64,000 nucleotides of DNA from Bacillota bacterium (GCA_012728115.1 JAAYFS010000055.1:11779-75778); one strand, 5' to 3'; positions 13,847-46,676 are shown, counted from the first letter of the stretch. Made by a program: numbers and translations. Notes: generated from the sequence alone by a model not told the origin.

Positions 13847-13850
13847 GTTT

Positions 13851-15605: not shown

Positions 15606-15609
15606 GGTC

Positions 15610-15996
15610 ATGGAAAGCATCATCGGCAATGGGATAGATATTATTGAAATTGGCCGAGTCAAAAAAGCGATGCAACGTAAGGGCTTTATTGATCGGATCT
15701 ATACAAAGAATGAGCAAGAATATCTTAAGAATAAACCTTATGCCTCTTGGGCTGCGCGTTTTGCAGCCAAAGAGGCAGTTATGAAAGCATTAGGTCTAGG
15801 ATTACGCGAAGGAATTCGTTTTGTTGACATTGAGATCTCAAATGATCCATACGGAAAACCACATATCACTCTATATGGTAGAAGCCTTGAAATAGCGAAT
15901 GAGTTAGGGATTTCACGGTGGTTAATTAGTCTATCTCACAGCAAGGATTTGGCTATAGCCGATGTTTTAGCGATTAAAACTGAATGTCGAAAATGA
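15610..15996 (+). CDS. acpS: holo-[acyl-carrier-protein] synthase
   Basis: GNGIDIIEIGRV at the N-terminus and a size of 128 aa fit AcpS. Confidence 0.8.
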   Translation: MESIIGNGIDIIEIGRVKKAMQRKGFIDRIYTKNEQEYLKNKPYASWAARFAAKEAVMKALGLGLREGIRFVDIEISNDPYGKPHITLYGRSLEIANELGISRWLISLSHSKDLAIADVLAIKTECRK

Positions 15997-16012
15997 GGAG
16001 TTACTTAGTAGG

Positions 16013-17539
16013 ATGAGAGTTGTTACAAGTGAAGAAATGAAAACGATCGATAGAATTGCAATTCAGGAGAAGGGTATTCCAAGCCTGAGTTTGATGGAGA
16101 ATGCAGGAAGTAGCGTAGTAAGAGCTATTGAAGATAGATATGGTTCGTTAACTGCTAAACGGATCTTGGTGCTAGTAGGTCGTGGTAATAACGGCGGGGA
16201 TGGTTTGGTTGCAGCTAGGCATCTTCTAAACAAAGGAGCACAAGTAAAAGTATTTATGCTCCACCCAGCAAATGAACTTTCACCAGAATGCCTAAAGAAT
16301 TTCGAGATTTTTAAGGCTCTTAATGGTGAATACCACTATATTACCGAACGAGATATCCATAAACTTAAACTAAGTATTGGCATTTCGGATATTGTAATCG
16401 ACGCTATTTTAGGTATAGGTGCCAAGGGTCCGTTAAAGGGACTTTATGCTACTGTGGTTGAGATTTTAAACAGTATTGATTGTAAGGTAGTAGCGATCGA
16501 TGTTCCTAGCGGCGTAGATGCCACAACAGGTAAAGTGGAGAGTGTTGCAGTTAGGGCAGACCTAACCGTTGTTCTTGGTCTGATGAAGCAAGGATTACTG
16601 CTATTGTCTGGCTTGGAATATGTCGGTGATTGGGTGGTTGCAGATATCGGAATACCGTATTCGCTAGCCTCTACAGTCAGGCGCTTTGTTACGGATGAGT
16701 CATTATACAAAGCCATTCCAACTAGACCGCGTGATGGTCATAAAGGGACTTTCGGTCATGGGTTAGTGGTTGCAGGTTCTAGGACTATGGCTGGTGCGGC
16801 ATATCTAACAAGTATAGCGATGTTGCGTGCGGGTGCTGGCATGGTGACCTTAGCCGTTCCAGAAAGTATCGCAGGCTTGTTTCCACCGAGCGAAATTATG
16901 ATCGTTCCCATTCCAGATACGCGTGATGGTTGTTTTGGGCGGACAAGTATTGCCAAGATCCTTGAACTATTTCCAGGTAAGGATGCGCTAGTTTTAGGAC
17001 CTGGGTTGGCGAGAATTGATGAAATAACCGAAGTCGTGCTAGAACTATTACTCAACTGGAAAGGCCCGTTGGTTTTAGATGCTGATGGAATAAATGCTAT
17101 CAGCGGTCAAGTAGATATGATTTTGGCGATCAATGAAGAACAGCGAAAGAACTGGATCCTCACTCCGCATCCAGGAGAAATGTCGCGACTAACAGGGGTG
17201 GATTTAGTCAAGATTATCGAAGATAGAGTTTCAATTGCTTATGAAACACAAAAAAAGCTTCAAGTAAACGTTGTTCTCAAAGGATTTCCTACTATAGTGG
17301 TTGGACCAAAACAGCTCTATCTGAATATCACAGGAAATCCTGGAATGGCCTCAGCGGGTATGGGGGATATTCTTTCGGGAATAATCGGGGGCTTGCTCTG
17401 CCAGAAAGTAGCTCCGTTAGAGGCGGCAGCTTTGGGAGTATATGTGCACGGAAAAGCAGGTGATTGTGCTAAACAGACAAAAGGGGAACGAGCATTGATC
17501 GCATCAGATGTAATTGATGCCCTCCCAGCGGTTTTGTAG
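16013..17539 (+). CDS. nnr: bifunctional NAD(P)H-hydrate epimerase/ADP-dependent dehydratase (YjeF N+C)
   Basis: GRGNNGGDGLVAARHL marks the YjeF_N domain. A C-terminal carbohydrate-kinase domain follows. Confidence 0.8.
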   Translation: MRVVTSEEMKTIDRIAIQEKGIPSLSLMENAGSSVVRAIEDRYGSLTAKRILVLVGRGNNGGDGLVAARHLLNKGAQVKVFMLHPANELSPECLKNFEIFKALNGEYHYITERDIHKLKLSIGISDIVIDAILGIGAKGPLKGLYATVVEILNSIDCKVVAIDVPSGVDATTGKVESVAVRADLTVVLGLMKQGLLLLSGLEYVGDWVVADIGIPYSLASTVRRFVTDESLYKAIPTRPRDGHKGTFGHGLVVAGSRTMAGAAYLTSIAMLRAGAGMVTLAVPESIAGLFPPSEIMIVPIPDTRDGCFGRTSIAKILELFPGKDALVLGPGLARIDEITEVVLELLLNWKGPLVLDADGINAISGQVDMILAINEEQRKNWILTPHPGEMSRLTGVDLVKIIEDRVSIAYETQKKLQVNVVLKGFPTIVVGPKQLYLNITGNPGMASAGMGDILSGIIGGLLCQKVAPLEAAALGVYVHGKAGDCAKQTKGERALIASDVIDALPAVL

Positions 17540-17565
17540 TTTATAGAGTTATGGAGTGATTAAGC

Positions 17566-18675
17566 ATGGGAAAACAAACGAGGCCTGCATGGGTTGAAGT
17601 AAATCTAGCTAGCATTGCCTACAACGTTCAGTATTTCAAAAAATTGATCCATGAGAATTGTCAATTGTTGGCCGTCGTTAAAGCAAATGCTTATGGTCAT
17701 GGTGACTTAGCTGTTGTGAGAACAGCTTTATCCAATGGGGCTACTTGGATAGGAGTCGCTTTACCTGAAGAAGGAGTAAGATTAAGGCGAGCAGGGATCG
17801 CTGCTCCAATTTTGGTACTGGGTGCAGTTGGACAAGAACAACTAGAACTATGTGTTACTAAAGATCTCGCCTGTACGGTTTTTCAATGGAGTATTGCTCA
17901 AAGCCTCTCGAATCTTGCAATAAGATACAACAAAACAGTTAGAGTGCACTTAAAAATAGATACAGGTATGGGACGTTTAGGTATTTTACCTTCGGAAGCG
18001 TTACGATTTGCAATCGCGGTAAGTAGATTACCTGGAATTCAGATTCAAGGGATTCTTACTCATTTTGCGACTGCTGATCAACCAGAAGATCAATATGTTC
18101 ATTGGCAGTTAGAGCAATTTGAAAAAGTAATCGCTGAACTCAGCGCTCACCACATTAATATTCCAATTAAGCATTGTGCTAATACCTCTGCGGTGCTCTT
18201 TTTACCAGAGGCACATTTTGATTTGGTAAGAGTGGGAATCGGTTTGTATGGATTGCATCCCCAAGGGAAAAGAAGTAATTTACATCCCGCAATGAGTTTT
18301 AAGTGTCGGATAGCGGCAGCGCGTCGAGTACCAGCAGGGTCAGCGATTAGTTATGGAGCTAGTTATATTACCAAGAAGGAAACAACGATTGCAATTTTGC
18401 CTGTAGGATATGCAGATGGAGTTAGCCGTAGGCTAAGTAATCAGGGAGAGGTTTTGATCGATGGAAATAGGTTTCCGATCATAGGGAAGGTGTGTATGGA
18501 TCACTGCATGGTCGATGTCGGAGATTTTCCAATCGAAATCGGACAAGAAGTGACACTTATCGGACGTCAAGGGAATCAGGAAATAACAGTAGAAGACTGG
18601 GCAGATTGGTTAGGTACAATAAACTACGAGGTTCCTTGTATGATTAGTGAAAGGGTACCACGAATCTATACATGA
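17566..18675 (+). CDS. alr: alanine racemase
   Basis: The PLP-Lys motif AVVKANAYGHG is present. Length is 369 aa. Confidence 0.85.
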   Translation: MGKQTRPAWVEVNLASIAYNVQYFKKLIHENCQLLAVVKANAYGHGDLAVVRTALSNGATWIGVALPEEGVRLRRAGIAAPILVLGAVGQEQLELCVTKDLACTVFQWSIAQSLSNLAIRYNKTVRVHLKIDTGMGRLGILPSEALRFAIAVSRLPGIQIQGILTHFATADQPEDQYVHWQLEQFEKVIAELSAHHINIPIKHCANTSAVLFLPEAHFDLVRVGIGLYGLHPQGKRSNLHPAMSFKCRIAAARRVPAGSAISYGASYITKKETTIAILPVGYADGVSRRLSNQGEVLIDGNRFPIIGKVCMDHCMVDVGDFPIEIGQEVTLIGRQGNQEITVEDWADWLGTINYEVPCMISERVPRIYT

Positions 18676-26865: not shown

Positions 26866-28909
<2,044 letters not shown>

Positions 28910-28970
28910 GAAGCTAATACCAAGCCCCCTGTCTGGGGGCTCCCCATTTTAATGGCAAGGAGGAGATCAG

Positions 28971-30152
28971 ATGAATAAAAAGACAATTCGCGATCTTGAT
29001 TTTAATAACAAACGGGTGTTGACCAGAGTAGATTTTAATGTTCCAATGAAGGATGGAGTCATTACTGACGATAAAAGAATTACCGCAGCTTTACCAACCA
29101 TTAAATATCTCTCAGAGCAAGGTGGCAAGGTAATTTTAATGTCGCACTTTGGCAGACCCAAAGGTCAAGTTGTCGACTCAATGAGATTAGACCCAGTTGC
29201 AAAAAGACTTTCTGAACTTCTCGGTAAACCAGTTTTAAAGCTTGACGATTGCATCGGAGAAGAAGTTCAAAAAGCGCTCGAAGGCATGCAACCTGGCGAT
29301 GTTGCATTGTTAGAAAACGTTAGATTCTACGCTGAAGAAGAGAAGAACGATCCCGAGTTTGCTAAAAAACTTGCATCGCTTGGTGATGTATACGTGAACG
29401 ACGCTTTCGGTGCCGCACATAGAGCGCACGCTTCTACAGCAGGTGTAGCAGAATATCTACCAGCAGTATCTGGTTTCTTAATGGAAAAGGAACTCCAATT
29501 CTTAGGCGAAGCTGTTAATAATCCGAAGCGTCCATTTGTTGCCATTCTCGGCGGAGCAAAAGTATCCGATAAGATCGCAGTGATCACTTCTCTCTTAGAA
29601 AAGGTTGATACCTTGATCATTGGTGGAGGTATGGCATATACTTTCCTTAAAGCTAAGGGATATGAGATCGGTAAATCACTATTGGATGCAGAAAGAATCG
29701 AATTTTGCCAAGGCTTAATTAAAGATGCTGAAGCAAAAGGCGTTAAGTTACTTCTGCCAGTTGATGTAGTAGTAGCTTCGGAATTTTCGGCAGATGCAGA
29801 CAATAAGGTTGTAGACGCTGATCAAATCCCAGCTGATTGGGAAGGTTTAGATATCGGTCCTAAGACCAGAGAACTCTTTGCAGAAGCAATTAAAAGCGCC
29901 GCAACAGTTATTTGGAACGGACCAATGGGAGTATTTGAATTCCCAGCGTTTGCTAAAGGAACAACTGCAGTTGCTCAAGCTTTAGCAGATAGCGATGCGA
30001 TTACCGTAATCGGCGGTGGGGACTCAGCTGCTGCAGTAGAACAAGCTGGATTAGCTGAAAAAATGACCCATGTCTCAACTGGTGGTGGCGCATCCTTAGA
30101 GTTCTTAGAAGGAAAAGAATTACCAGGGGTCGCTGCTCTTGACGATAAGTAA
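28971..30152 (+). CDS. pgk: phosphoglycerate kinase
   Basis: A 393-aa protein with the canonical PGK N- and C-domain motifs. Confidence 0.9.
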
Positions 30153-30171
30153 TGAAACTAGAGGTGAAACA

Positions 30172-30927
30172 ATGCGAAAACCGCTCATTGCAGGTAACTG
30201 GAATATGCATAAGACAGTGGCGGAGGCGATTGAGGCTTGCCGCATCCTAGAAACTTTGGTCCAAGATGATCAAGTTGAGACTGTTATTTGCGCTCCATTT
30301 ACCTGTTTATCCGCGCTAGCTGCCCTAGGAATGAAGAAAGTTAAAATCGCTGCTCAAAATATGTTTTATGAAGAACAAGGTGCCTATACAGGGGAAATCT
30401 CTCCTGTAATGCTTCGCGACGTTGGTTGTGATTACGTTATTATCGGACATTCCGAACGCCGTGAATACTTTGGTGAAACTGATGAAACAGTAAACAAGAA
30501 AGTACATACAGCGTTGAAGTTCGATATCAAACCGATAGTCTGTGTTGGTGAAAGTTTAGAACAAAGAAAGAACGGGCAAACCGAATCCTTGGTTACTTCG
30601 CAAGTTGAGCAAGCTTTCTCAGGGGTAGATGAGGCAGATGCGCAAAAAATAGTAGTTGCTTACGAGCCTATTTGGGCGATCGGCACAGGCGAAACAGCTA
30701 GCGCCGAAGAAGCGAATAGAGTGATTAAAATAATCAGGGCTACACTTAAGAATCTTTATAGTGAAGAAGTAGCCGCAAATATCAGAATCCAATATGGTGG
30801 CAGTGTCAAACTCGAAAACATCAAAGAATTGATGGAGCAATCTGATATTGATGGTGCTTTAGTCGGAGGTGCAAGTTTAAATCCTGAGACTTTTGCATCG
30901 ATGATAAACTATAAATCTCTAAAATAG
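30172..30927 (+). CDS. tpiA: triosephosphate isomerase
   Basis: MRKPLIAGNWNMHKT and AYEPIWAIGTG are present. The start is ATG 30172 with RBS GAGGTG. Confidence 0.9.
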   Translation: MRKPLIAGNWNMHKTVAEAIEACRILETLVQDDQVETVICAPFTCLSALAALGMKKVKIAAQNMFYEEQGAYTGEISPVMLRDVGCDYVIIGHSERREYFGETDETVNKKVHTALKFDIKPIVCVGESLEQRKNGQTESLVTSQVEQAFSGVDEADAQKIVVAYEPIWAIGTGETASAEEANRVIKIIRATLKNLYSEEVAANIRIQYGGSVKLENIKELMEQSDIDGALVGGASLNPETFASMINYKSLK

Positions 30928-30953
30928 TTGTAGCAGTGAGAGGAGGTCGCAAT

Positions 30954-33784
<2,831 letters not shown>

Positions 33785-33835
33785 CAGACTTGCTTCAAGG
33801 TCAAGGATATGCTAAAATAATGGTTGTGTAAATAA

Positions 33836-34078
33836 GTGGTGGCGGGAGGTGCCAGCAAGGTGCAAACATTTTTGATGGTGGTCCAATTCTTGGTTGCGTT
33901 AGGCTTAATCGTCGCAGTCTTGATGCAAAAAAGTTCCGCTGAAGGGTTAGGTTCCATCGGTGGTGGAAGCAAAATGTTTTTCGATAAAGCTTCAGCGAAA
34001 GAACGGGCTTTAGAAAAGGCCACTACTTATCTAGCCGTTGGATTTATGGTTCTATCCGTGGTCCTTGGGATTATTTAG
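33836..34078 (+). CDS. secG: preprotein translocase subunit SecG
   Basis: A small two-TM protein with a Gly-rich loop (GLGSIGGGS). It follows eno. The start may be the internal ATG at 33875. Confidence 0.7.
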   Translation: MVAGGASKVQTFLMVVQFLVALGLIVAVLMQKSSAEGLGSIGGGSKMFFDKASAKERALEKATTYLAVGFMVLSVVLGII

Positions 34079-34263: not shown

Positions 34264-37200
34264 TTAAGACAATGTTGCTTGCTTTTCTTGTTTAACATCC
34301 GCTTTATCTCTATGGAATAAATCGTATAGAACTGGAATGAACACCAGTGTTAAAGCGGTTGCGTAGATCAAACCGCCGATCGTAGTAATCGCTAGCGGCT
34401 GAATCATTTCCGCTCCCATACCCAAACCGATCGACATGGTTGAAAGACCAAAGATGGTTGTGATTGCAGTCATTAGAATAGGTCTTAGACGGGTATTACC
34501 CGCTTCAATAATTGCTTTGCGTTTTTCCATGCCGCTTTCTCGCAATTGATTGACATAGTCCACGAAGACAATCCCGTTGTTAACTACAATTCCTGTTAGA
34601 ATAATCAAACCGAGAAACGCCACGATACTTAGAGGGTTGTTTGTAAACAGTAACGCTAAGAATCCTCCAGTAAAGGCTAGTGGGATGGTAAACATCACTA
34701 TGAACGGTGATAGCAAGCTTTGGAACTGTGCAACCATTACTAGGTAGATTAAGATCACTCCAAGAACTAGCATTAAAGTTAGATCGTCAAAGGCATCCGT
34801 GATCAATTCTTGTTCGCCACCGATTGCGATACGATATCCTTCTGGCATGTCAAAATCGTTGATTAGCGCTTCTACTTCACGACCGACAAGTCCGATGTTG
34901 TAACCATCGGCAACTCCAGCTGTGACCGTAACATATCTTTGGAGGTTCTCTCGATAAATCGATGAGAAGCCTTCGCTTTCGCTTATTTCAGATATTTCCT
35001 CAATACTGATTTCGCCACCAATCATCGAAGGCAAGGTTGTTTTCCGAAGCTCATCGATGGTTAGAGACTGCAAGCTCTTTTGGTCAGTAACTACTATATC
35101 GTAGTCTCTGTTGCCAACGGTTAAAGTGGTTGTTGCTTTCGGTGGAGAGAGCAGCTGATTTACCTTCAAGAACACCTGAGCAACAGTTATTCCATGACCG
35201 ATTCCCTTAGCTTTATCAACGTTAATCTTTAATTCAGCTGCACGTTTTCCGATACCATCCGAAACGTCAACTGTACCTTCGACGGAACGTAGCTTTTCGG
35301 CAAAATCCATTGCTAAAGCCTGGAGAGTATCAAGATCTCTACCAGAGATGGTAACTGCGATTTCTCCGCCAGCGAAGGTAGAGATGTCCATACTAGTATC
35401 AGTAACAGTAATTTCAGCATCGATATCAGCGGTTTTTTCTCTAATTATTTGCGCGATTTCATGAGTTGACTTGGAGCGTTCATCTTTTAAGAGTACATAG
35501 TAGGATAAGGAATCACTGTTATTTCCTCCTAAACTACCAAAACTGAGTCCTATGATTGAACCGCCACCCATTTGAGCTCCTACAGTTTCTACTTCATCGA
35601 TTTTGGAAATAAGCTCGCCTATTTTATCTGCGGTTGCAACAGCGTTTTCAAAAGATGTACCTGGGGTTAACGAAACTTGCACCATTAATTGGCCAGTATC
35701 TGCGGCAGGGAAGAACTCTGTTCCTACTCTTAATGAGCCAAGTAGGCTAAGCACGAAAAGAATAAGCACAAAACTAATGACAGCCCATTTTTTATTGAGT
35801 GCAAAGTTTAGTACTTTATTATACAATCCTTTGGGTTTATCAAGTGTACGATGGGTCTTTTTAGTATTCTTCAAGGTATTAGCAGCGATCACTGGTACCA
35901 AAGTTAGGGCAACGAGTAAACTTGCTAGTAATGAAAAAGTAATAGTTAGACCCATATCCGAAAAGACCTGTCTGGTTAAGCCCTTAGTAAAGACAATTGG
36001 TAGAAATACAGCGATTGTAGTTAGAGTGGAGGAAGCGATTGCTCCTGCAACTTGGTTAGCTCCTTGAATAGCCGCTTCTTTGGCGCTCTTTCCTTCGCTG
36101 CGCATTCTAAAGATATTTTCGATTACTACGATTGAGTTGTCGACTAACATCCCAACGCCAAGGGCTAGACCACCCATTGAGATAATATTTAATGACACAT
36201 TTGAAAAATACATTAATACGAAAGCTGTGACCAACGAAATTGGAATAGAAAGTCCAACAGCGATCGTTGGTTTAATATCTCTTAAGAATAGTAAAAGAAC
36301 TAGGATTGCTAGAACTCCACCAGAGATCAAGTTAGAAACGATCGAATCTAGCACGATATCGACGTATTTTCCTTGATCCATAAGAGGGACAATAGTAACC
36401 CCTTCATGTTTCTTCATAATCTCTTCGGCTCGTTGCCTGACTTCAGCTGCCACATCAGAGGTGGAATGTTCAGCTTGTTTTTGGATTGTCAACACTATGG
36501 AATCTTTCCCATTAACCTTGTTGTATGAGGTTTCGGAGTTATCCGTTATGCTAATGTCGGCAATGTCGCTAAGAACTACAGGAGGAATGTTTCCGATCGG
36601 GATAGAGAAGATAGGAAGTTGCTCTAATTCCTTTATACTCTTAATTCTATCACCAGTTCGGACCAGATAGTTAGTGCCTTGATCAGAGAGATACCCAGCT
36701 GGAACATTGAGATTTTGACCTTGAATCATACCCGCGATCAATTCTGGAGTAATCGCAAAATCCTCTAATCCTTCAAAATCAAAACCTTTAAGTAATCCAG
36801 GCATAAAGAACACAGCTGACATAATTGTTTGTTGGATCTCATCCGTTGTTTCTTGGATCTTTTCATCGTTTAGAATCACGTTGATGGTTGATTCTAATAA
36901 ACCGCTTGCGGAGACAGATGCTACACCATCAATTCTCTCGAATTCTGGGATGATAGTATTTTGAATAAATGCGGATGAATCAGCTAAAGATTGCCCTTCT
37001 ACAGCTACCGAGAGAACGGATATTGGAAGCATATCTGGGTTTATTCTTAAAATCATTGGGGAGTTGACGCTGTCTGGCATATAGGCTTTAATCATATCAA
37101 GACTTTCGCGTATTTCGATCATTGCGGTATCCATATTGGTGTCTCCAAAGAACTCGAGAATAACGATCGAAATATTCTCGCTTGATATGGAGTTAACGTT

Positions 37201-37440
37201 ACGGATATTGCTTAAAGATAGCATAGATTGTTCAATAGGTCTACTGACCGCTAATTCAACCTCTTCTGGACTAGCCCCAGGATAAATCGTTGCGACAATT
37301 GCATAAGGTAGATTCATACTTGGTAACAGATCCGTTGACATATTGATCACTGAAACCGCACCAAGAATTAGCACAACGATTACAGCTACTAATATAGTAT
37401 AGGGTTTGTTTACACTAAATCTAGGCAGCAAATCATTCAC
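34264..37440 (-). CDS. RND-family efflux transporter permease (AcrB/SwrC-like)
   Basis: A 1058-aa protein with 12 predicted TM helices and two large loops. No membrane-fusion-protein gene is adjacent. Confidence 0.85.
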   Translation of the reverse strand: MNDLLPRFSVNKPYTILVAVIVVLILGAVSVINMSTDLLPSMNLPYAIVATIYPGASPEEVELAVSRPIEQSMLSLSNIRNVNSISSENISIVILEFFGDTNMDTAMIEIRESLDMIKAYMPDSVNSPMILRINPDMLPISVLSVAVEGQSLADSSAFIQNTIIPEFERIDGVASVSASGLLESTINVILNDEKIQETTDEIQQTIMSAVFFMPGLLKGFDFEGLEDFAITPELIAGMIQGQNLNVPAGYLSDQGTNYLVRTGDRIKSIKELEQLPIFSIPIGNIPPVVLSDIADISITDNSETSYNKVNGKDSIVLTIQKQAEHSTSDVAAEVRQRAEEIMKKHEGVTIVPLMDQGKYVDIVLDSIVSNLISGGVLAILVLLLFLRDIKPTIAVGLSIPISLVTAFVLMYFSNVSLNIISMGGLALGVGMLVDNSIVVIENIFRMRSEGKSAKEAAIQGANQVAGAIASSTLTTIAVFLPIVFTKGLTRQVFSDMGLTITFSLLASLLVALTLVPVIAANTLKNTKKTHRTLDKPKGLYNKVLNFALNKKWAVISFVLILFVLSLLGSLRVGTEFFPAADTGQLMVQVSLTPGTSFENAVATADKIGELISKIDEVETVGAQMGGGSIIGLSFGSLGGNNSDSLSYYVLLKDERSKSTHEIAQIIREKTADIDAEITVTDTSMDISTFAGGEIAVTISGRDLDTLQALAMDFAEKLRSVEGTVDVSDGIGKRAAELKINVDKAKGIGHGITVAQVFLKVNQLLSPPKATTTLTVGNRDYDIVVTDQKSLQSLTIDELRKTTLPSMIGGEISIEEISEISESEGFSSIYRENLQRYVTVTAGVADGYNIGLVGREVEALINDFDMPEGYRIAIGGEQELITDAFDDLTLMLVLGVILIYLVMVAQFQSLLSPFIVMFTIPLAFTGGFLALLFTNNPLSIVAFLGLIILTGIVVNNGIVFVDYVNQLRESGMEKRKAIIEAGNTRLRPILMTAITTIFGLSTMSIGLGMGAEMIQPLAITTIGGLIYATALTLVFIPVLYDLFHRDKADVKQEKQATLS

Positions 37441-37443
37441 TCC

Positions 37444-37875
37444 TTAACTTTCTAAAATTTGATTAAATTTCTCTAGACCGGTGATAATGGTCAGCATTTC
37501 TGCTGTTGAGGATTTACAAAAGAGGTGACCGAAGAAGTCTTTGAACTTCTGCTCTATTTGAAGAGTTAACTCATCGACCTTTTCAGTTAACTCAACGGTA
37601 ACCACTCGACGATCGCTTGTACTTCTATTGCGGGCTACTAATCCGTCCCTTTCTAATCGATCGATTATTCCAGAAGTGGTACTTTTGGTTAGCCCCATTT
37701 CCGCACTAATTTCACTAATATTCATCGGGCCTTGCTCTAAAAGAAGTAGAAGGATAGACATCTGTGGAAGGGTTAACTCGGAACCCTCAAAATACTCTCG
37801 TATGTATTTTTGTAGTTTCTTCTGTATCTTACTCATAAGTTCGAAAATAATTCTAGAATGTTCCTCGTGACACAC
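37444..37875 (-). CDS. MarR-family transcriptional regulator
   Basis: A winged HTH (LTLPQMSILLLL...GLVAR) in a 143-aa protein. It is the first gene of the marR-RND operon. Confidence 0.8.
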   Translation of the reverse strand: MCHEEHSRIIFELMSKIQKKLQKYIREYFEGSELTLPQMSILLLLLEQGPMNISEISAEMGLTKSTTSGIIDRLERDGLVARNRSTSDRRVVTVELTEKVDELTLQIEQKFKDFFGHLFCKSSTAEMLTIITGLEKFNQILES

Positions 37876-38023: not shown

Positions 38024-38050
38024 AAAAAACCGTCATAAAGACGGTTAAAA
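38024..38050 (-). terminator. intrinsic terminator of ssrA
   Basis: Minus-strand AACCGTC-TTTAT-GACGGTT followed by TTTTTTT. Confidence 0.7.
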
Positions 38051-38057: not shown

Positions 38058-38408
38058 TGGTGGAGGTGAGCGGAGTTGCACCGCTGTCCGCAAGTGAAAT
38101 TACATTGGCCTCTCCGAGCGCAGCTACAATTTTAGAATCTCGCCAAAACACACTCCTTGTAGCTGGATTATGTTCTAGCCAGCCCATTACATTCCCCCAG
38201 AGTGCTGGGCGATTCCTCTGAAGTAACCTGCTAAGTTGACACCAGGTTTATTCCCGCAGGTAAAGAACAAACTGGCGTAACTGCTATCTTAAGCAGCTAA
38301 AGCGTAATTATTATCTGCAATTATTTTAGGTCCCAAATTTAACGAGGTTTGGGGATCTCGGCTCGCTTCCAATGCTCTTCCTACCTACGTCGAAACTAAT
38401 TCACCCCC
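38058..38408 (-). ncRNA. ssrA: transfer-messenger RNA (tmRNA)
   Basis: The minus strand reads 5' GGGGGTGAATTAGTTTCGACG ... tag ORF GCAGATAATAATTACGCTTTAGCTGCTTAA (ADNNYALAA*) ... T-arm AGCGG-TGCAACT-CCGCT, then CACCTCCACCA 3'. Length is about 351 nt. Confidence 0.8.
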
Positions 38409-38449
38409 AAGTGTTTAACACAATTGGGTTCACTAAACGTGCATTAAAT

Positions 38450-38478
38450 ATAATATCATATTTTGGAGTTAGCGTCAA
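38450..38478 (-). promoter_or_regulatory. sigma-A promoter of ssrA
   Basis: On the minus strand, TTGACG (38473-38478), a 17-bp spacer and an extended -10 TGaTATTAT (38450-38458). Confidence 0.55.
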
Positions 38479-38765
38479 TGTTGAAACTCATTTGGCTCTA
38501 GATTTCACCATTGTTTATCATGGTTGATTTTATAAGCATCACAGGAAAATTACAAGGAATTATTTATTTCAAAACCAGCGAATGTAAAACAAGGAATTTT
38601 AAGATGTTAATTCTTAACTTCTTTCCTTATATTTAAAGGGAAAGAAGTGTATGTTTCGAACAGAGATAATTAAAAAGACACGTTTAATCATCTGGTAATG
38701 GTAAGGACATTAAATTTGAGGATTGCAAGGCGTAACTGTGGAAAATAATCCGTTCCGTAGGGGGA

Positions 38766-40340
38766 ATGATGATGAGAAAACCGATCGTATTGGTGGTAAT
38801 GGACGGTATTGGGAAGGGCAAAGGGGATTTTAGTGATGCTGTTAGTTTAGCCAATACACCCACTCTCGATATGTTAATGACTAATTATCCAAACATCTTA
38901 ATTAAGGCACATGGTACTGCTGTCGGGTTACCTTCTGATGCTGATATGGGAAACAGCGAAGTAGGGCATAACGCGTTGGGATGCGGACAAATCTATTCTC
39001 AAGGAGCGAAGTTAGTAAATGAAAGTATTGAAAGAGGAGAAATCTTTGAATCTGATGTTTGGCATGAAGTGATCTCAAATTGTCTTAACAATAATTCCAT
39101 CTTACATTTTATCGGACTTTTATCTGATGGGAATGTTCACTCGAATATCAATCACTTAAAGTCGATGATCATCAAAGCCAAAGAAAGCAATGTAACCAAA
39201 GTCAGGGTTCATATTCTACTCGATGGTCGTGATGTTCCAGCTACTTCTGCTCTTGAATACGTTGATGATCTAGAAAGCCTGCTTGCAGAACTTAATTGCG
39301 ATAACTTCGATGCTCGCATAGCCTCTGGTGGAGGTAGGATGAAAATTACGATGGATAGATATCAAGCAAACTGGGATATGGTAAGACTAGGTTGGGAAAC
39401 GCATGTGCTTGGTGAGGGTAGACAGTTTACTTCTGCTCTTGAGGCTATCAAGTCGTATCGCGAGGAATTTAACGTGATCGATCAAGATCTTCCGCCTTTT
39501 GTGATCGCTGAAAATGGAAATCCTGTTGGAAGAATGAATGATGGCGATAGCGTAATCTTTTTTAATTTCCGTGGTGATCGGGCAATTGAAATAAGTATTG
39601 CCTTCGACTATCAAGATTTTGATAAATTTGATCGGAAGTATGTTCCAAAGGTGGTTTACGCAGGGATGCTTCAGTATGATGGAGACATCAATGTTCCCAA
39701 GAAATATCTTGTTAGTCCGCCAAACATCAAAAACACCTTGTCAGAGCTATTGGTGGAACATAGGATAAAGCAATATGCTGTATCGGAGACCCAAAAGTAT
39801 GGGCATATGACCTACTTTTGGAATGGAAATAGGAGTGGAAAGTTTAGCGATGAGCTGGAAGTGTTTTATGAAGTACCATCGGATCAGGTGCCTTTTGAAC
39901 AGCGTCCTTGGATGAAAGCAGCAGAAATAACTGATAAAGTAATTGAAGCGATTGAATCGGGAGAATACGGCTTCATCCGTTGTAATTATCCAAACGGTGA
40001 TATGGTAGGGCATACTGGCAACATTGATGCGACAATTATCGGTGTAGAAGCAGTTGACTTAGGTTTGGCAAGAATACTAGAGGCTGTCACCAAAAAAGAT
40101 GCAATCCTAATTGTAACAGCTGATCATGGCAATGCGGATGATATGGTAGAGATTGATAAATCGGGGAATCTGCAAATGAAAACCGCTCATTCGCTGAACC
40201 CCGTACCTTTTATTATCTTTGACAAAAACAAGGCATACAGTATTAAACCAGGTAATTATGGACTCGCGAACGTAGCTCCCACCATCGCTCGCTTATTCAA
40301 TCTAGACATACCAAAGCATTGGGAGGAGAGTATGGTATAG
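38766..40340 (+). CDS. second, divergent 2,3-bisphosphoglycerate-independent phosphoglycerate mutase paralog
   Basis: The 524-aa protein has iPGM motifs (VLVVMDGIG, NSEVGH, LLDGRDV, ADHGNADDM). It is far more divergent than the operon copy at 30954..32498. Confidence 0.8.
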   Translation: MMMRKPIVLVVMDGIGKGKGDFSDAVSLANTPTLDMLMTNYPNILIKAHGTAVGLPSDADMGNSEVGHNALGCGQIYSQGAKLVNESIERGEIFESDVWHEVISNCLNNNSILHFIGLLSDGNVHSNINHLKSMIIKAKESNVTKVRVHILLDGRDVPATSALEYVDDLESLLAELNCDNFDARIASGGGRMKITMDRYQANWDMVRLGWETHVLGEGRQFTSALEAIKSYREEFNVIDQDLPPFVIAENGNPVGRMNDGDSVIFFNFRGDRAIEISIAFDYQDFDKFDRKYVPKVVYAGMLQYDGDINVPKKYLVSPPNIKNTLSELLVEHRIKQYAVSETQKYGHMTYFWNGNRSGKFSDELEVFYEVPSDQVPFEQRPWMKAAEITDKVIEAIESGEYGFIRCNYPNGDMVGHTGNIDATIIGVEAVDLGLARILEAVTKKDAILIVTADHGNADDMVEIDKSGNLQMKTAHSLNPVPFIIFDKNKAYSIKPGNYGLANVAPTIARLFNLDIPKHWEESMV

Positions 40341-41071
40341 GGGTTGGGTTTTTTAGCAAGCATACAAGCTAGCGGCGAGATCTGCCGTTACCCAGGGCAA
40401 AGCTGCACCAGATAACATTTCGCTCTTACGGCGTGATTAAGTTAATGATTGAGGTGGGGAATAGGGAAAATTTTTGAATCACCGCTAAGCCTCGAAAAAA
40501 TCGTTTGTGCAAGGAAGGCTTGTTATTAGACTAGATAGAGAAGTTGCATAGGAAAGTTACAGGTATCTTGATTGATAGGCTAACGTTATTGCTAATTAAT
40601 GGAAGATAGTTGGACAAAAGGTTTTATTTTGAAAGAGAACGTAGGCGCGGAATTTGCGAATAATACCAAATAGGTGTTGAACCAATGTGAAAAACTGGGG
40701 TTAATAGAACTCAACCATCTATCATTGTTAAAAGGAATAAAATGTGGATACGTCCTTTTACACAGACTATGGTGATGGTAAGACGCTTCTGGGGTAATAG
40801 CGGGGACGATTAATGATCAAATCAAGATCATATACTATGATGGTATTAATAACTCACCCATGATGGAAGTCCAGATGATCTGGAGGGTATTTTCCCCTTT
40901 AGCGGTCAGTGCGAACCACAAATGAACATAAAATCCTGGGAGGTTCCCACATAGCTCTAGAAGCCCATTACAGGGTCTTACAAGGAAAAATGTTAAATAA
41001 ATAGAAATAAAAAATGCGGTTCGCACACACTGCTTTTGAAACAAGCCTATGGAAAGGGTTTGTGCACCCTA

Positions 41072-41236
41072 CGGTCGCACCCTGTGCGGGTGCGTGGATT
41101 GAAACCGTCACTTAAATGTAACAGCCAAATCTCCTGCACTGTCGCACCCTGTGCGGGTGCGTAGATTGAAACTCTTTGCTTCGCGCATAATGTTTTCGCC
41201 TTCTTTGTCGTACCTTGTGCGGGTGAGCGGATTTTA
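41072..41236 (+). CRISPR. orphan CRISPR mini-array of 3 repeats and 2 spacers; 32-nt type I-C-like repeat GTCGCACCCTGTGCGGGTGCGTGGATTGAAAC
   Basis: Repeats lie at 41072-41103 (consensus), 41139-41170 (1 mismatch) and 41205-41236 (degenerate terminal copy). Spacers are 35 and 34 nt. The ...ATTGAAAC 3' end is typical of I-C/I-B repeats. No cas genes are in the window. Confidence 0.65.
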
Positions 41237-41657
41237 ATCTTAAGAAAACAATGTTTTAAATCTGAACCCTACTTTTTAGAACTATTTTATCTGAAATTCG
41301 CTAACAGCGAGTTTTTTTAAAAAAGGACTTTTTACTACGTTTTTAATCAAGGACTAGTACTCTTATTCCATCCCCTCTCTACTATTAAGAAATGAATACT
41401 ACCCTATTATCCCATGCATACTCTAACTGCATTCAATTTTTTATATATTAACAATGCCCCTACTGATTGGTCGGATGTCGCATCTTATTTAAGATGTTAT
41501 CCAAACTAATATCGCCTTGACCCAAAGAATCAGCGGTATTATCTTAAAAAGTGGGTGCGCAACCACCGGTTGCGACATTTCCAAGTGCAATATATAGAAT
41601 AGCAACCAGGGTTTTTGATAGGATAAAGCTAATTATTGAAGCAAAAGAGGTGGTAAA

Positions 41658-42248
41658 ATGAAATTGGATGAAAAAATCCTTTACTGTCGTAAAAGAGCGG
41701 GGTTATCGCAAGAGGAATTAGGTGAGAAAATAGGAGTATCTCGTCAAGCAATCAGCAAATGGGAGACAGGGGAATCTGTTCCAGAATTAGGAAAAATTAT
41801 ACTTTTGGCAGATATTTTTCAAGTAACAACAGATTGGTTGTTAAAGGATGGAGAAGGGGAGGAAGTTAGAGATTCAAAAGAAGCTCAGGCTGTGAATATA
41901 ACTCCTAATTGGGTAGAGTCCATTCCTGGTGTAATAGGCAATTTAATTAAAAAATATGGTTGGTTGTTCGGTGTATATTTGGCGATCTCAGGAGCAATAT
42001 CTATTGGTTTTGGAATTGCTGGTAAATTGATGTTCCGAAGTTTTATGCAAAACTCTCCTTTTTCAAATGAAACAACCTTCTTTTTCGATGCTCCAGGGTT
42101 TTCTGCCAGTAACTCTTTCGGCTTTGGAGTTAGTTCGGATCCATCCTCTTATATAACTGGATTCGTGATCATACTGGGAACCATTTTTCTTGTAGGTGGT
42201 ATAATTCTGGCTATCGTTCTAAAAAGAAAAGGGGTAGAGAAGGTATAA
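41658..42248 (+). CDS. membrane-anchored XRE-family HTH transcriptional regulator
   Basis: The N-terminal HTH_3 (LSQEELGEKIGVSRQAISKWETGE) is followed by two predicted TM helices (WLFGVYLAISGAISIGFGIAG and ITGFVIILGTIFLVGGIILAIVL). Confidence 0.7.
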   Translation: MKLDEKILYCRKRAGLSQEELGEKIGVSRQAISKWETGESVPELGKIILLADIFQVTTDWLLKDGEGEEVRDSKEAQAVNITPNWVESIPGVIGNLIKKYGWLFGVYLAISGAISIGFGIAGKLMFRSFMQNSPFSNETTFFFDAPGFSASNSFGFGVSSDPSSYITGFVIILGTIFLVGGIILAIVLKRKGVEKV

Positions 42249-42453
42249 AAAAGAAAAAATTATGGTAAAAGACCGCTACAGTTCTGATTTGCCTCTCCAA
42301 ATGCTAGGTTTTTCTGTCTAACATTTTGGGTGCAGATCATCACGCAGCGGTCGTTTTAATGTCCCTTGATTCTTAATCGACTTTAACGGGTCAGGCAACT
42401 CCGAATGACTCCTTCAACGCCAACATGCTCGAACAACGCAATCGGAGTGCTTC

Positions 42454-43539
42454 CTAAAATAGTAGAAGTAGATCGAATAGATCGAACATATAGTTAAACA
42501 ATTGAATTTCGGTTTCGGAAATACCAATCGAACTTTCATCAAAAATGAAAACCAGGTCAATTCTAGCGATCTCTTGAATTATTTCCGCTCGTTGCTCACG
42601 CGTGGTTAGCTCGCCTCGCGTTACTATCATTGCTAGGCGCTCTGACATCACAAAACCAAAAGAAAAAGCGTCGGTTTCTAAAATAAATAGTATTTTATCT
42701 GGTATCAGAGCTGCTTCGTCAAATAAATTTTCCATAATTACGATCGGATAACTTACCACGCCGTCGGAAGCTAGTGCAATAACAAAGATTGGTTCGGTTT
42801 CCATCACATCTTCATTATCGAGAACGGCAAGCAATTGTTCGAAAATATCCATCTGATGGATAGATATTATTTGAAAACCTTCTGGTAATGGTAAGGATGA
42901 GATGTTTGCCCAAGGTACAAGACTGCTAAACTCTTCCGTAGTAATTCTCGTTATGGTTGAACCAAGGGGAAATTCGGGAATACTAGCTAAATCAAGCTTT
43001 GAAATATCTGGATCATAATCTACGACAATCGTTTCTCGCACATAGATAATATTACCTTCATCATCGTACTGATAGAATTTTAGAATTAAGCCGCTTTCTA
43101 AATCGACGTATAATGTATTCACTAACCTATTATCCCTTTTATGGTAGAGTTCGATAACGATACAGTCTCGTTCTGCTACCTGTTGGAAATCAACTATTCT
43201 GAACTCATAGTTTGATAGAAGAAGACTAAGGTTGTCGCTTGTTCTTCGAAACTGTACTTCCTCCTTCAAATTATATTCCAATTGGAATTGTTGAAATGGG
43301 ATGATGGAATCTTCTCCATCTGAACCAGTTTGAAGAACGTAAATATTATCAACATAGTAGATCTCCGTTGTGGTAGCATACGTTTCATCTAAGTAAACAG
43401 TGGTAATTTGCTTAAAATATACGTTTTCGAACTTAGGTTTCGCAATAGGAAGCCAATAATCAATCTTTGCCGAAACCATCATGGAAAAACTTAGCAATGC
43501 AAGTACGCAGACCAACATACTGAACGCTATTCTTTTCAT
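42454..43539 (-). CDS. secreted protein of unknown function, paralog A of a tandem family (possible LolA/RseB-like fold)
   Basis: A signal peptide in a 361-aa protein. It shares blocks with the next two genes: NYEFRIVDFQQVAERDCIVIELYHKRDN, VDYDPDIS, PEGFQ and C-terminal TREQRAEIIQEIARIDLV. Confidence 0.6.
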   Translation of the reverse strand: MKRIAFSMLVCVLALLSFSMMVSAKIDYWLPIAKPKFENVYFKQITTVYLDETYATTTEIYYVDNIYVLQTGSDGEDSIIPFQQFQLEYNLKEEVQFRRTSDNLSLLLSNYEFRIVDFQQVAERDCIVIELYHKRDNRLVNTLYVDLESGLILKFYQYDDEGNIIYVRETIVVDYDPDISKLDLASIPEFPLGSTITRITTEEFSSLVPWANISSLPLPEGFQIISIHQMDIFEQLLAVLDNEDVMETEPIFVIALASDGVVSYPIVIMENLFDEAALIPDKILFILETDAFSFGFVMSERLAMIVTRGELTTREQRAEIIQEIARIDLVFIFDESSIGISETEIQLFNYMFDLFDLLLLF

Positions 43540-43689
43540 AGGCCTTTTCTGCCACCTTTCTTTTACTTTTCAAGCTTGCATCCATTTTGGGATTGACAAC
43601 CAAGAATCGCTGGTTTTGGCTACGGACATCAAAAAATGTCACTATAGCCTTAGATACGTTGAGTCCAATTAAAGACTTGGAACAGCTCT

Positions 43690-44730
43690 TTATTCCCTGG
43701 TTAAATCAAGAACCAGCTCAATATTAGTTAAAGCCTTTATAATCTCTATTCTTTCTTCGTGAGATATCACATCGCTGGTAATTGCTATAGCCATATCTTG
43801 ACCTTCATTTAAAACAATTGCAATGGTAGTAGCAGAAAGTTTTTCAACAATAGCAATTATTGCTTCTGGTAACAATTCAGCAACACTTTCTAAGAGCGAA
43901 TCGAACATTATTACGATATCTATGGTTTCTAGGCCGTCAGAGATTATAATGGTAAAACCAGTCGATTGATAGGTCTGCTGAGGTGATCTCGAAGAAGCAT
44001 CCTGAAAATCCAAAACCTCTGTTTCGTATATTGCATGAAAGAAATCTACTGCTCGAAACCCTTCTGGCGATAGTAAGGAGTCAAGATCCACCCATGGCAG
44101 GCGTTCGAGGAGTTCGGTTTTAGATATGCGTTCGAAATGAACTACCGTGTCATTGGTGGAAGTATTATCCAGATTGATATGAGAAACATCTGGATCGTAA
44201 TCTACACTTACTGCTTCGTAGGACTCGACCAATTTTCCATCCTCGTCGTAATAGTATTCGTTGAGACTTATTCCAGTTTTAAGATCGACTACATATTTTA
44301 TTTTCAAAGAATTTTGTTTTTTATCATGCAGCTCGATCACCACGCAGTCTCGAGCTAATACTTGTTGAAAACCAACTATTCGCAACTCATAGTTTGAAAA
44401 AAGGACTTCAAGATATTCGCTTAAACGCCATGTAGCGGTCTGAAGTTCTGGGTCGTATTCCTGTATTCTCTGGGCTGAGTCTGTGCTAAATAAACCTTCT
44501 GCGGTTTCCGTTATTTCAACAAACGTGTTATCAAAAAGATAGTATTCAACTATTGATGTATAAACCTCATCCGCATACTCGACATACTTTTGCTTTAGAT
44601 ATAATTTTTCAAAATTGTTTTCAATAAAAGGGAATCCTGGTGGTAGGGCATCAGATATCATTATTGACTGACTGACCAAAAACAATAAGCAAAAACATAA
44701 ACAGGAAATCGTTTTTTCATTTCGTCTCAA
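43690..44730 (-). CDS. secreted protein of unknown function, paralog B
   Basis: A signal peptide in a 346-aa protein. Shared blocks: NYELRIVGFQQVLARDCVVIELHDKKQN, VDYDPDVS, PEGFR, HEERIEIIKALTNIELV. Confidence 0.6.
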   Translation of the reverse strand: MRRNEKTISCLCFCLLFLVSQSIMISDALPPGFPFIENNFEKLYLKQKYVEYADEVYTSIVEYYLFDNTFVEITETAEGLFSTDSAQRIQEYDPELQTATWRLSEYLEVLFSNYELRIVGFQQVLARDCVVIELHDKKQNSLKIKYVVDLKTGISLNEYYYDEDGKLVESYEAVSVDYDPDVSHINLDNTSTNDTVVHFERISKTELLERLPWVDLDSLLSPEGFRAVDFFHAIYETEVLDFQDASSRSPQQTYQSTGFTIIISDGLETIDIVIMFDSLLESVAELLPEAIIAIVEKLSATTIAIVLNEGQDMAIAITSDVISHEERIEIIKALTNIELVLDLTRE

Positions 44731-44781
44731 TCCGCCTTATATTAAATTTTAATCCTTTAGAAAACCATTAGGCGAATCGCC

Positions 44782-45839
44782 CTAAAATAAATATTGTAAC
44801 CAAAAGTCGGAAGAGTTAACATTATCAATGTTGGTTAACGACTGGATGACCTCTGTTCGTTGTTCGTGTGTCATAAAATCGCCTTCGATCATGATCACAA
44901 TAGGAGTTGGGTCAAAAACTATGCCTATCGTTGAGTTTTGGTATTCAGCAATTGCAAGTATTGTTTCGTCGCTAAATTCAATACTATCTTCTGTGAGATA
45001 AGGGACTTGGATTTGAATCGTGAATAGATTCAAACCATCGGACACAATAATGATTAGGAAAAGATCTTGGTGTTCATCTTTGGTTTCCGTAATTGACTCA
45101 GTAATATATTCTGATTCGATGTCAAGAGCTACAGAAATAATCTCGGCGAAGCCTATAACTTGAAAGCCTTCTGGCAGAGGCAAGGACGTAAGATTTATCC
45201 ATGGAACAAGCTCAGCGAACTCTTCGGCGGTATAAATTAAACCGTCGAACTCAACACCGAAATTTGTAATACCATCTGCTTCAAGTACAGATAAATTGGG
45301 ATCGTAGTCAATTTCCAGTGTTTCCATACTAGCAATAATATTACCTTCGCTATCATATCGGTACTCCTTCAGAATATGGTTCGTCTCTATATCAACAATC
45401 ACTGTAAACACCAATGAATTGTCTTTTTTCTTGTAGACATCCATTTCGATACAGTCGCGTCCTGCAACTTCTTGGAAACCTACCATTCTAACTTCGTAGT
45501 TTGATAAAAAGACTTTTTTGCTTCTGTTGATCTTATTACTTTTTCCATAAAACCGAAATTGCTCTGCAATCTAAATGTTTCGTCCTCTACCCATTCGTCA
45601 AATTGTCGAGCCTTGAATTGAGTAATTATTGTATCCTCACCGAAGTAAAAGTCCGCCTCAAGTTTGAAAACTTCTGGTCCGTGATCAGTAAAGACTACTT
45701 TGGCATAAATGTTATCCACCTTTTTTTCAAGAAACATAAGTATAGGATACGCGAAAGTTATAGGCTCTGCTAGCGCAATGCTCGATACGATAAACACTAT
45801 CGCTAGACAAATCATAGAACTAGTTAACACTTTTTTCAT
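44782..45839 (-). pseudogene. paralog C of the same family, disrupted by a frameshift
   Basis: The N-terminal piece (45480..45839, with signal peptide) and the C-terminal piece (44782..45570, an open frame without ATG that contains FLSNYEVRMVGFQEVAGRDC) overlap in different frames. Together they are about 360 aa, like the intact paralogs. Confidence 0.5.
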
Positions 45840-46220
45840 TCATGAAGACCGCCTTTCATTGTATTTTATGGTTCAAAAAATATGTTGCATCTTTAAAAAA
45901 GTTAGCCAAAAAAATAAACAAAAACGGACATAAGTTTCTTGTTCTGCAAATACTAATTTTGACATCAATTTAATACAATACTTAAATTATTTATTCTAAA
46001 ATCCTTTACCAAATTGGACAAGAATCAATTAAAAAATAAAGGAGGACCCCATATTGATGTTGCCCCCTAATTCCGTGTCTGGATTTGAGGGTTCGCATCA
46101 TATCTGAGTATCCTCCTAAATCAACGCTATTTTTTACATGACTTTAATACCGTTCTCAATCTTAATCATTATTCCAAACTAAACTCAAATCAAAGCCAAA
46201 CCAAAACTAAAAACCCAACT

Positions 46221-46676
46221 TTAACGCTTACTTAAAGCTCTTTCAATTCGCCGTGCTGCATCTTTCTTGGCGATCGCGTCTCTCTTATCATATTTACGTT
46301 TACCCTTAGCTACCGCTAGTTCAATCTTACATTTCCCTCTTTTGAAATAAAGTCTCAAGGGAATCAAGGTATAACCTTGCTCCTGAGTTCTGCCTACCAA
46401 GCGATTAATTTCCCGCTTATGTAGTAAAAGTTTGCGGACACGTAAAGGGTCATGGTTAAATCGATTGCCTTGCTCGTAAGGGCTGATATGCATCCCGTGA
46501 AGAAAAACTTCGCCATCTTTAATTCTGGCAAAACTATCGCTAATATTAACTTTCCCTAAACGCAAGGATTTTACCTCTGTTCCTTGCAGAGCAATCCCAG
46601 CTTCGATAGTATCTTCGATAAAGTAATCATGTCGTGCTTTTCGATTATGAGTAATAATCTTAATTTCTTCCACCAT
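46221..46676 (-). CDS. smpB: SsrA-binding protein
   Basis: [30 protein letters not shown] is present in a 151-aa protein. Confidence 0.9.

Follow-up and report, generated by a model that had tools for sequence, protein, structure and literature searches.

A real yet ordinary rearrangement separates smpB from ssrA in one Bacillota lineage and holds three RseB/MucB-like genes

Introduction

In this article, I will discuss a locus of a Bacillota bacterium at which smpB and the tmRNA gene ssrA, both read from the minus strand, lie 7.8 kb apart. The window is a stretch of 64,000 nucleotides from a metagenome-assembled genome (GCA_012728115.1, JAAYFS010000055.1:11779-75778), and all positions are counted from its first letter. 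Both genes are genuine: the tmRNA call, which an earlier note on this DNA had allowed might be wrong, is upheld at 38058..38408 (tag ADNNYALAA) by ARAGORN and by a full-length match to Rfam RF00023 (174 bits), and smpB (46221..46676) matches Pfam SmpB with an E-value of 1e-64, which together confirm the separation that the note had described. A sigma70-type promoter-like site (TTGACG-17-TATTAT with a TG extension; 38450..38478, minus strand; 10/12 in a consensus scan) would serve ssrA and has an equivalent in the short smpB-ssrA spacer of two relatives (L001 and L002); a consensus match to an intrinsic terminator lies 3' of ssrA (38028..38046, minus strand; scan and sequence), and smpB has a promoter-like site of its own (46704-46732; consensus match, 11/12 in the promoter scan). 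To judge by these consensus matches, each gene would be expressed from its own promoter and, because of this, trans-translation would be unaffected.

On the ssrA side, the interval 38409..46220 begins with a second iPGM gene of the gpmI type (38766..40340, plus strand), transcribed divergently from ssrA, whose product belongs to a Clostridia-type clade and passes the TIGR01307 equivalog model (450.5 bits; cutoff 330.65). The protein shares 39% identity with the product of the canonical gpmI, encoded at 30936..32498 in a cggR-gap-pgk-tpi-gpmI-eno operon, and in alignment it carries the motifs GNSEVGH, DGRD, NGDMVGH and ADHGN, which are catalytic in iPGMs. It had been called a divergent second iPGM, and a second iPGM it is, but not a divergent one in the sense of decaying, being 70-83% identical to hundreds of proteins. 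Its closest homologues lie in unrelated contexts (one, 83% identical, sits on a 33%-GC contig with an identical transposon module on either side), and its flanks are not conserved in the homologous loci. Between the canonical gpmI and its orthologue in the nearest relative, identity is only 71%. Horizontal transfer of the second copy is suggested, provided that the L083 organism is phylogenetically distant from this one.

Behind this gene runs the longest gene-free stretch of the window (1317 nt, 40341..41657), previously described as long, decayed and non-coding; gene-free it is, but not visibly decayed, since only the CRISPR repeats were matched, and no remnant of a cas or other gene, when six-frame Pfam, three-frame PADLOC and Rfam searches (E up to 1) were run, together with tblastx searches of all loci gathered for comparison and blastn searches of plasmids and phages. 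Its first part (40341..41073) has no detectable homologue, and the 3' end of that part, AT-rich at 40990-41020, is presumably the leader of an orphan type I-C-like CRISPR mini-array (41074..41238, plus strand) with three 32-nt repeats (41074-41105, 41141-41172 and a degenerate 41207-41238) and two spacers of 35 and 34 nt, where zero repeat matches are expected by chance. The repeat ends in ATTGAAAC, is 31/32 identical to that of a P. acidaminophilum array beside an annotated type I-C cas7c gene (the closest match) and also matches the arrays of N. vulgaris pDV1; the mini-array noted earlier is confirmed, and the I-C label fits, by association with the cas7c-linked array and not by a repeat classifier. 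Repeat length and ending, spacers of 34-35 nt and a degenerate terminal repeat are all shared with other orphan or degenerate type I-C arrays, whereas here there are only two spacers, no exact match of either in viral contigs by exact search, and no adjoining cas gene or remnant, cas3-cas5-cas8c-cas7-cas4-cas1-cas2 being absent from the array-flanking proteins and the translated upstream DNA. Such a mini-array would be a remnant, functional only if I-C cas genes lie elsewhere in the genome.

Next comes a gene for an XRE-family HTH regulator (41658..42248, plus strand; Pfam HTH_3, E 1e-17) with two C-terminal transmembrane (TM) segments, read from the sequence, and an external loop of about 40 aa, in agreement with the membrane-anchored XRE regulator reported earlier. 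The remainder is taken up by three tandem paralogs on the minus strand, encoding RseB/MucB-like secreted proteins of 361 aa (paralog 1, 42454..43539) and 346 aa (paralog 2, 43690..44730; Pfam MucB_RseB, E 1e-6; 33% identical to paralog 1) and a third copy (44782..45839) that is frameshifted into ORFs of 119 and 234 aa at an A6/T5 tract around 45506-45519, with the same sequence in L081, an independent assembly. Hydrophobic N-terminal signal sequences can be read in paralogs 1 and 2 and in the N-terminal ORF of paralog 3, so the description of three tandem secreted paralogs, one of them frameshifted, holds. That of recent paralog decay does not: the copies are 33-42% identical to one another, too little for a recent duplication, and independent assemblies show the frameshift to be fixed. 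The most interesting cargo of the interval is this set of three genes for a rare envelope sensor of RseB/MucB-like type. Between paralog 3 and smpB, a spacer (45840..46220) holds an ORF of 24 codons that has a ribosome-binding site (AGGAGG) and, by scan, no terminator-like site.

A small RseB/MucB-fold family in Bacillota

The paralogs, set down in the earlier note as of unknown function, are of a known kind: they are homologues of RseB and MucB with the two-domain fold of these proteins, an N-terminal LolA-like half-barrel followed by a C-terminal domain. Pfam PF03888 matches paralogs 1 and 2 at 30.3 and 28.6 bits (cutoff 22.3), in each case over the second half of the domain only, paralog 3 has no match to this model, and none of the three matches MucB_RseB_C. 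The NCBIfam RseB model gives 18.9 bits, well short of its cutoff of 368, and a family profile compared with PDB sequences finds MucB at an E-value of 2e-5 and RseB at 0.06. A first AF2 model, built from three sequences, was too poor (pLDDT 53) and was discarded. A word-seeded search with a paralog returned that paralog alone, and an exhaustive profile search was required for the family, which has 57 representatives among 1.84 billion proteins.

Elsewhere, members of the family have company. In L095, L097 and L100 they belong to operons in which a gene for an ECF sigma factor (TIGR02937, 82-96 bits; cutoff 43) is followed by that of a small single-TM protein, which directly precedes the RseB-like gene, and L098 has a sigma-less tandem pair of RseB-like genes, one copy of which is broken. 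The earlier statement that the gene set fits no system that can be named is thus partly resolved, as to the RseB/MucB homologues and their ECF sigma operons elsewhere. Compared with E. coli RseB and P. aeruginosa MucB, the family is only 14-20% identical, and its C-terminal domain, duplicated in some members, is matched by no sequence model; compared with the rpoE-rseABC and algU-mucABCD modules, its sigma factors are nearest to SigW-type models and not to RpoE, its small TM proteins fit no RseA/MucA family, and the window holds no sigma/anti-sigma gene or remnant, only the gene itself in triplicate with one copy broken. By analogy with RseB and MucB, the proteins would be exported to bind either a lipidic ligand or a membrane regulator by its external segment, and at this locus they would act without an adjacent sigma/anti-sigma pair.

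The split is real and derived

The comparison with relatives that the earlier note had proposed finds smpB and ssrA contiguous: ssrA follows smpB after 39-106 nt in all five of the nearest relatives whose flanking genes are in the same order (L001, L002, L091, L092 and L093), and because these keep the short gap, the split is supported as lineage-specific and derived. In the ancestral arrangement of this group, cggR-gap-pgk-tpi-gpmI-eno-secG converges on ssrA and smpB, after which come amidase-gerM-murI-murD-rph and tRNAs; L091 has the gene order of the window minus two extra blocks, since this species also carries a MarR regulator and an RND permease (34264..37875, minus strand) between the 3' end of ssrA and secG (33836..34078). 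This second lineage-specific block is missing from L001, L091, L092 and L093, and L002 has a different 7.3-kb block instead. Databases contain no SmpB relatives between 98% and about 80% identity to that of this lineage, and its nearest relatives there are named Limnochordia or Darwinibacteriales.

Across Bacillota more widely, ssrA lies within 1 kb of smpB in 56 of 72 assessable smpB loci, bearing out the claim that the two are normally adjacent; 12 of these 56 adjacent tmRNA genes were found by Rfam and missed by ARAGORN, and synteny statistics drawn from ARAGORN alone would exaggerate how often the pair is separated. Frequent neighbours of smpB are secG, rnr and ssrA, in the canonical Firmicutes order secG-(rnr)-smpB-ssrA (PMC4131195). 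In the present group secG, smpB and ssrA are still neighbours, with the glycolytic operon adjoining secG, but ssrA-smpB converges on secG, rnr is missing from the locus, and in this species insertions have come between smpB and ssrA and also between ssrA and secG.

Discussion

How did 7.8 kb come to lie between these genes? It is scarcely credible that the separation was produced by assembly or binning, through a chimeric contig that brought unrelated DNA up against the flanks of smpB and ssrA (with the CRISPR repeats as one conceivable joining point), even though the source is a metagenome-assembled genome and the independent contig L081 stops at 41367, about 130 nt beyond the array. Contigs L081 and L082, from other samples and 99.4% and 99.6% identical to the window at the nucleotide level, keep smpB, the paralogs and the XRE gene contiguous as they are here, the second iPGM and SmpB are six protein accessions apart in the NCBI record of the genome (NLY11673.1 and NLY11679.1) and lie on a contig for which an equal length is reported, an ENA contig size of 115,548 nt is reported for both the second iPGM and a 99% SmpB, and composition is uniform across the junctions of the interval; since at least three independent assemblies of one species share the split, a chimera is excluded. 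A more familiar explanation is a classical, perhaps degraded, ssrA-targeted island, in which a site-specific recombinase inserted one foreign element at the tmRNA gene, its integration module disappearing afterwards. tmRNA genes are indeed frequent integration sites (PMC4131195; PMC3146451), ssrA islands that lack an integration module exist (PMC3146451), and the interval, with its pseudogene, is gene-poor, 31.5% of it being non-coding (flanks, 4.8% and 9.4%). Like the Dehalococcoides ssrA-GIs (PMC3146451) and the Islander class (Mantri and Williams, 2004, as cited in PMC4131195), the locus has lineage-specific accessory DNA adjoining the tmRNA gene, with a CRISPR array, regulators and a pseudogene as cargo and a second variable block 3' of ssrA. 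However, islands specific to ssrA enter the gene at its 3' end, so that the element lies downstream and is bounded by a direct repeat of that end (PMC3146451), whereas the present block lies on the 5' side, between 38408 and smpB, where the hot-spot logic of the earlier note does not apply. Probes of 27, 22 and 18 nt from the ssrA 3' end, with 3-5 mismatches allowed, found no second copy in the window, only ssrA itself and one chance site inside cggR. Neither a recombinase, an integrase nor a transposase is encoded in 38409..46220, where all ORFs of at least 100 aa are assigned, no recombinase remnant was found in 40341..41080 (six-frame Pfam, three-frame PADLOC), and att-like repeats are absent; border inverted or direct repeats came up as 70-80% matches inside genes and were taken as chance. 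Even the MarR-RND block, which is on the 3' side, has neither att repeats nor an integrase. Composition, a supporting and not strictly defining criterion for an ssrA island, points the same way, in that the six ORFs of the block have a GC3 of 0.29-0.37 (core 0.336 +/- 0.032) and a Karlin B of 0.19-0.41 (core 0.292 +/- 0.059), each within the range of the other genes of the window. With its parts found in unrelated contexts elsewhere as well, an ssrA-targeted island is very improbable here, and of the horizontally acquired or rapidly evolving accessory module proposed earlier, the accessory nature stands, and core-like GC3 and codon bias give no hint of a recent foreign origin.

The split is rather a real yet ordinary local rearrangement with no mobile island, and the interval is probably a lineage-specific, non-mobile mosaic that built up, in one isolated Bacillota lineage, within the short spacer between smpB and ssrA. 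Its parts have different histories (the Clostridia-type iPGM, the orphan I-C array, the XRE-TM gene and three old RseB-like copies, one a fixed pseudogene), and at least two recombination events, illegitimate or driven by homology, would have formed it in place of site-specific integration; it would also have been resident long enough to acquire the composition of its host. It may instead go back to a single ancient insertion that was later ameliorated, and part of it could be one functional unit and not patchwork, given that the XRE-TM gene neighbours the RseB-like genes. A bolder version, in which the XRE-TM protein takes the place of RseA or MucA and the three RseB-like proteins bind its loop of about 40 aa and so control its activity or proteolysis, an RseB-type sensor moved from an ECF sigma/anti-sigma pair to a one-component, membrane-tethered transcription factor, would draw on the two-domain fold and signal peptides of the paralogs, on the small single-TM protein that the family follows downstream of an ECF sigma factor elsewhere, and on the XRE-TM gene being, in a window that lacks a sigma/anti-sigma pair, the nearest regulator, 205 nt away. 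I consider it unlikely: the XRE-TM gene and the paralogs run towards each other and hence are not co-transcribed, no XRE-TM homologue stands beside the sigma-less tandem copies of L098 or the family member of L100, and HTH-plus-TM proteins are common and generic, the HTH part alone matching other families. Quite unlikely, too, is the wider proposal of a rare RseB/MucB-fold clade of envelope sensors, present in a few Limnochordia-like Bacillota and normally the third gene of an ECF sigma/anti-sigma-like operon, that has here been uncoupled, triplicated and placed beside an XRE-TM protein that it could gate.

What, then, does the locus teach? The linkage of smpB and ssrA can be broken by the plain accretion of accessory DNA that bears no hallmarks of a mobile element, and nearness to a tmRNA gene is by itself no proof of an island. 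As posed, the finding is of minor importance, and the caution about ARAGORN and the RseB-like family are of more use. A search of the accessible literature found no paper linking RseB with diderm Firmicutes, and the family appears to be a very small and undescribed one of RseB/MucB fold in Bacillota, with ECF operons in three lineages. Its operons of ECF sigma factor, small TM protein and RseB-like protein extend the envelope-stress architecture of Proteobacteria into Bacillota.

The split and its setting

In the window, the tmRNA gene ssrA (38058..38408, minus strand; tag ADNNYALAA; ARAGORN and Rfam RF00023 concordant, 174 bits, full length) lies 7,812 bases from smpB (46221..46676, minus strand; Pfam SmpB, E 1e-64), and every element that the earlier note had listed between them was found: a second gpmI-type iPGM (iPGM#2), a gene-free stretch, a CRISPR array, an XRE regulator and three tandem paralogs. 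Since smpB, the paralogs and the XRE gene occur in identical order in contigs of the same species from two other metagenomes (L081, 99.4% nucleotide identity; L082, 99.6%), in the NCBI MAG the accessions of iPGM#2 (NLY11673.1) and SmpB (NLY11679.1) differ by six, and the frameshift sequence of the third paralog is unchanged in L081, the split is not an artefact.

The statement that the two genes are normally adjacent was checked on 80 Bacillota smpB loci among the matches listed, each with 10-kb flanks (72 assessable, 8 not), where tmRNA genes were called by ARAGORN and Rfam. It largely stands: ssrA is within 1 kb of smpB in 56 of the 72 assessable loci, 1.7-9.2 kb away in 3, and not found by either program in a flank of at least 3 kb at 13, chiefly Negativicutes, and on these Rfam-corrected counts adjacency, though typical here, is not a universal rule in this section of the phylum. 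ARAGORN missed 12 of the 56 adjacent genes (at L002, L009, L016, L018, L026, L033, L034, L056, L062, L064, L066 and L077, including Neobacillus, Desulfosporosinus, Robertmurraya, Rossellomorea and several MAGs), all recovered by Rfam RF00023 directly 3' of smpB at 129-177 bits.

Among nearer kin, a protein collection of about 5.8 billion clusters holds no SmpB between 98% and 80% identity to that of the window, and the next relatives carry the names Limnochordia or Candidatus Wallacebacter (order Darwinibacteriales). Five such loci (L001, L002, L091, L092 and L093) have the flanking order tRNA Pro-Gly-Arg-His, ham1-rph, murD, murI, gerM, AMIN-amidase and smpB in common with the window, and in all five ssrA adjoins smpB across 39-106 nt, so that synteny bears out the earlier note and, among these loci, places the split in the source species only. 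L091 is the clearest case: there cggR-gap-pgk-tpi-gpmI-eno-secG and ssrA-smpB converge as they do in the window, only with two blocks fewer. Two insertions in the window are thus derived: the 7.8 kb that separates smpB from ssrA, and a MarR regulator with an RND permease (34264..37875) between the ssrA 3' end and secG (33836..34078). That second site is the one expected for ssrA islands; L001, L091, L092 and L093 have nothing there, and L002 has a 7.3-kb block of other content (8473..15799; GNAT, beta-lactamase-like, ABC transporter and two-component system genes); neither an integrase nor an ssrA-end repeat was found in either block. Throughout the group ssrA-smpB (window 38058..46676) converges on the glycolytic operon and secG (26866..34078) with no rnr adjoining smpB, whereas Bacillus and Clostridium have a co-oriented secG-rnr-smpB-ssrA. 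The public MAG contig of L001, DGEY01000064.1, terminates in an untrimmed Nextera adapter (CTGTCTCTTATACACATCT, 10520..10545).

Because ssrA and smpB each keep a promoter-like site, and ssrA its predicted terminator, trans-translation is probably unaffected by the split. The layout of the ssrA promoter-like site matches the short smpB-ssrA spacers of L001 and L002; no terminator-like site was seen 3' of smpB. The spacer downstream of smpB also contains a 24-codon ORF (MMRTLKSRHGIRGQHQYGVLLYFL, ~46028..46102, minus strand) with an AGGAGG ribosome-binding site, and a CCAAA-type short tandem repeat lies at 46174..46205.

Contents of the interval

The second iPGM (38766..40340) scores 450 bits on the gpmI equivalog model, above the cutoff of 331, and shares 39% identity with the canonical gpmI of the glycolytic operon; with 70-83% identity to hundreds of Clostridia-type proteins, it is a conserved enzyme and no decaying duplicate. 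Its closest homologues stand in unrelated gene contexts, none near ssrA, one that is 83% identical lies between two identical transposase/AAA modules (L083, GC 0.33), and the canonical gpmI orthologues of the window and its nearest relative share just 71% identity, which together suggest that iPGM#2 was acquired horizontally. The L083 modules (185..5326 and 13938..18498; rve/Mu-transposase-C, AAA_22 ATPase, CLB_0814 family and small ORFs) enclose ABC exporters, the iPGM#2 homologue and another rve gene, a layout resembling a composite transposon with a glycolytic enzyme as cargo.

Beyond it comes the longest gene-free stretch of the window (40341..41657, 1,317 nt), with a CRISPR array (41074..41238) of three 32-nt repeats, the last degenerate, and spacers of 35 and 34 nt. 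An array next to a cas7c annotated as type I-C has a repeat identical to this one at 31 of 32 positions, and the pDV1 arrays of N. vulgaris match it as well; around the window's own array neither cas genes nor remnants of them were detected, and neither spacer has an exact match among viral sequences. Calling this stretch decayed, as the earlier note did, remains a guess, since its DNA outside the repeats matches nothing searched; what can be measured is that 31.5% of the interval is non-coding, against 4.8% and 9.4% in its flanks.

Next comes an XRE HTH protein whose C-terminal part has two transmembrane segments (XRE-TM, 41658..42248), followed by the three paralogs in tandem, all on the minus strand, of which the third is split by a frameshift. 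They are only 33-42% identical among themselves, so the duplications are old, and with the same frameshift sequence in L081 the supposed recent decay falls away. Their Pfam MucB_RseB matches are weak and N-terminal; a word-seeded homology search returned only the query protein, and an exhaustive profile search of 1.84 billion proteins just 57 family representatives, about a dozen of them full-length. In three independent Bacillota lineages (L095 3397..5850; L097/L096, L097 2684..4560; L100/L101, L100 5137..7071) a member with the RseB/MucB fold is encoded after an ECF sigma factor and a single-TM protein of 105-121 aa without a family match, in overlapping reading frames, like an rpoE-rseA-rseB-type operon. 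The window itself lacks sigma and anti-sigma genes and any remnants of them. Judging from the fold, from this operon context elsewhere and from the analogy to RseB and MucB, the window's paralogs are, most likely, envelope proteins that are exported and bind a ligand or a partner. Several members (454-495 aa) have a duplicated C-terminal domain. Another locus (L098/L099, GC 0.42) has two tandem copies, one fragmented, and no sigma factor; in L098 the pair (5880..8867) lies downstream of PadR, MacB/FtsX-type ABC transporter and AhpC genes; in its first gene the lipoprotein-like signal (LVGC) falls in a different frame, and its second gene is split into three ORFs, which parallels the window's decaying tandem array.

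Discussion

What, then, is this interval? The earlier note proposed a horizontally acquired or rapidly evolving accessory module at a tmRNA hot spot for islands, but ssrA-specific islands lie downstream of ssrA and are delimited by the gene and a directly repeated copy of its 3' end (PMC3146451), whereas the 7.8-kb block is on the 5' side. Probes of 18-27 nt, allowing 3-5 mismatches, revealed no second copy of the ssrA 3' end in the window or the five relatives, the interval's ORFs include no recombinase, and none of the six departs in GC3 or Karlin codon bias from the range spanned by the remaining genes of the window; the lower total GC of the paralogs (0.36-0.38 versus 0.41) is absent at third codon positions and so reflects amino-acid composition. 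The position, the lack of a repeat and of a recombinase, and the core-like composition thus make an ssrA-targeted island very unlikely. A more interesting possibility, that the RseB-like paralogs act on the neighbouring XRE-TM, finds little support, as the paralogs and XRE-TM are transcribed towards each other and family members in L098 and L100 have no XRE-TM homologue alongside.

Best supported is a functionally heterogeneous mosaic, which would have accreted in the smpB-ssrA spacer through non-site-specific recombination and may have been resident long enough to look native. As a lineage-specific islet between smpB and ssrA, it adds one more case to a familiar kind of genome variation; the RseB/MucB-like family with ECF-sigma operons in Bacillota, for which the searchable literature seems to have no description, is the only element of the locus with some wider interest.
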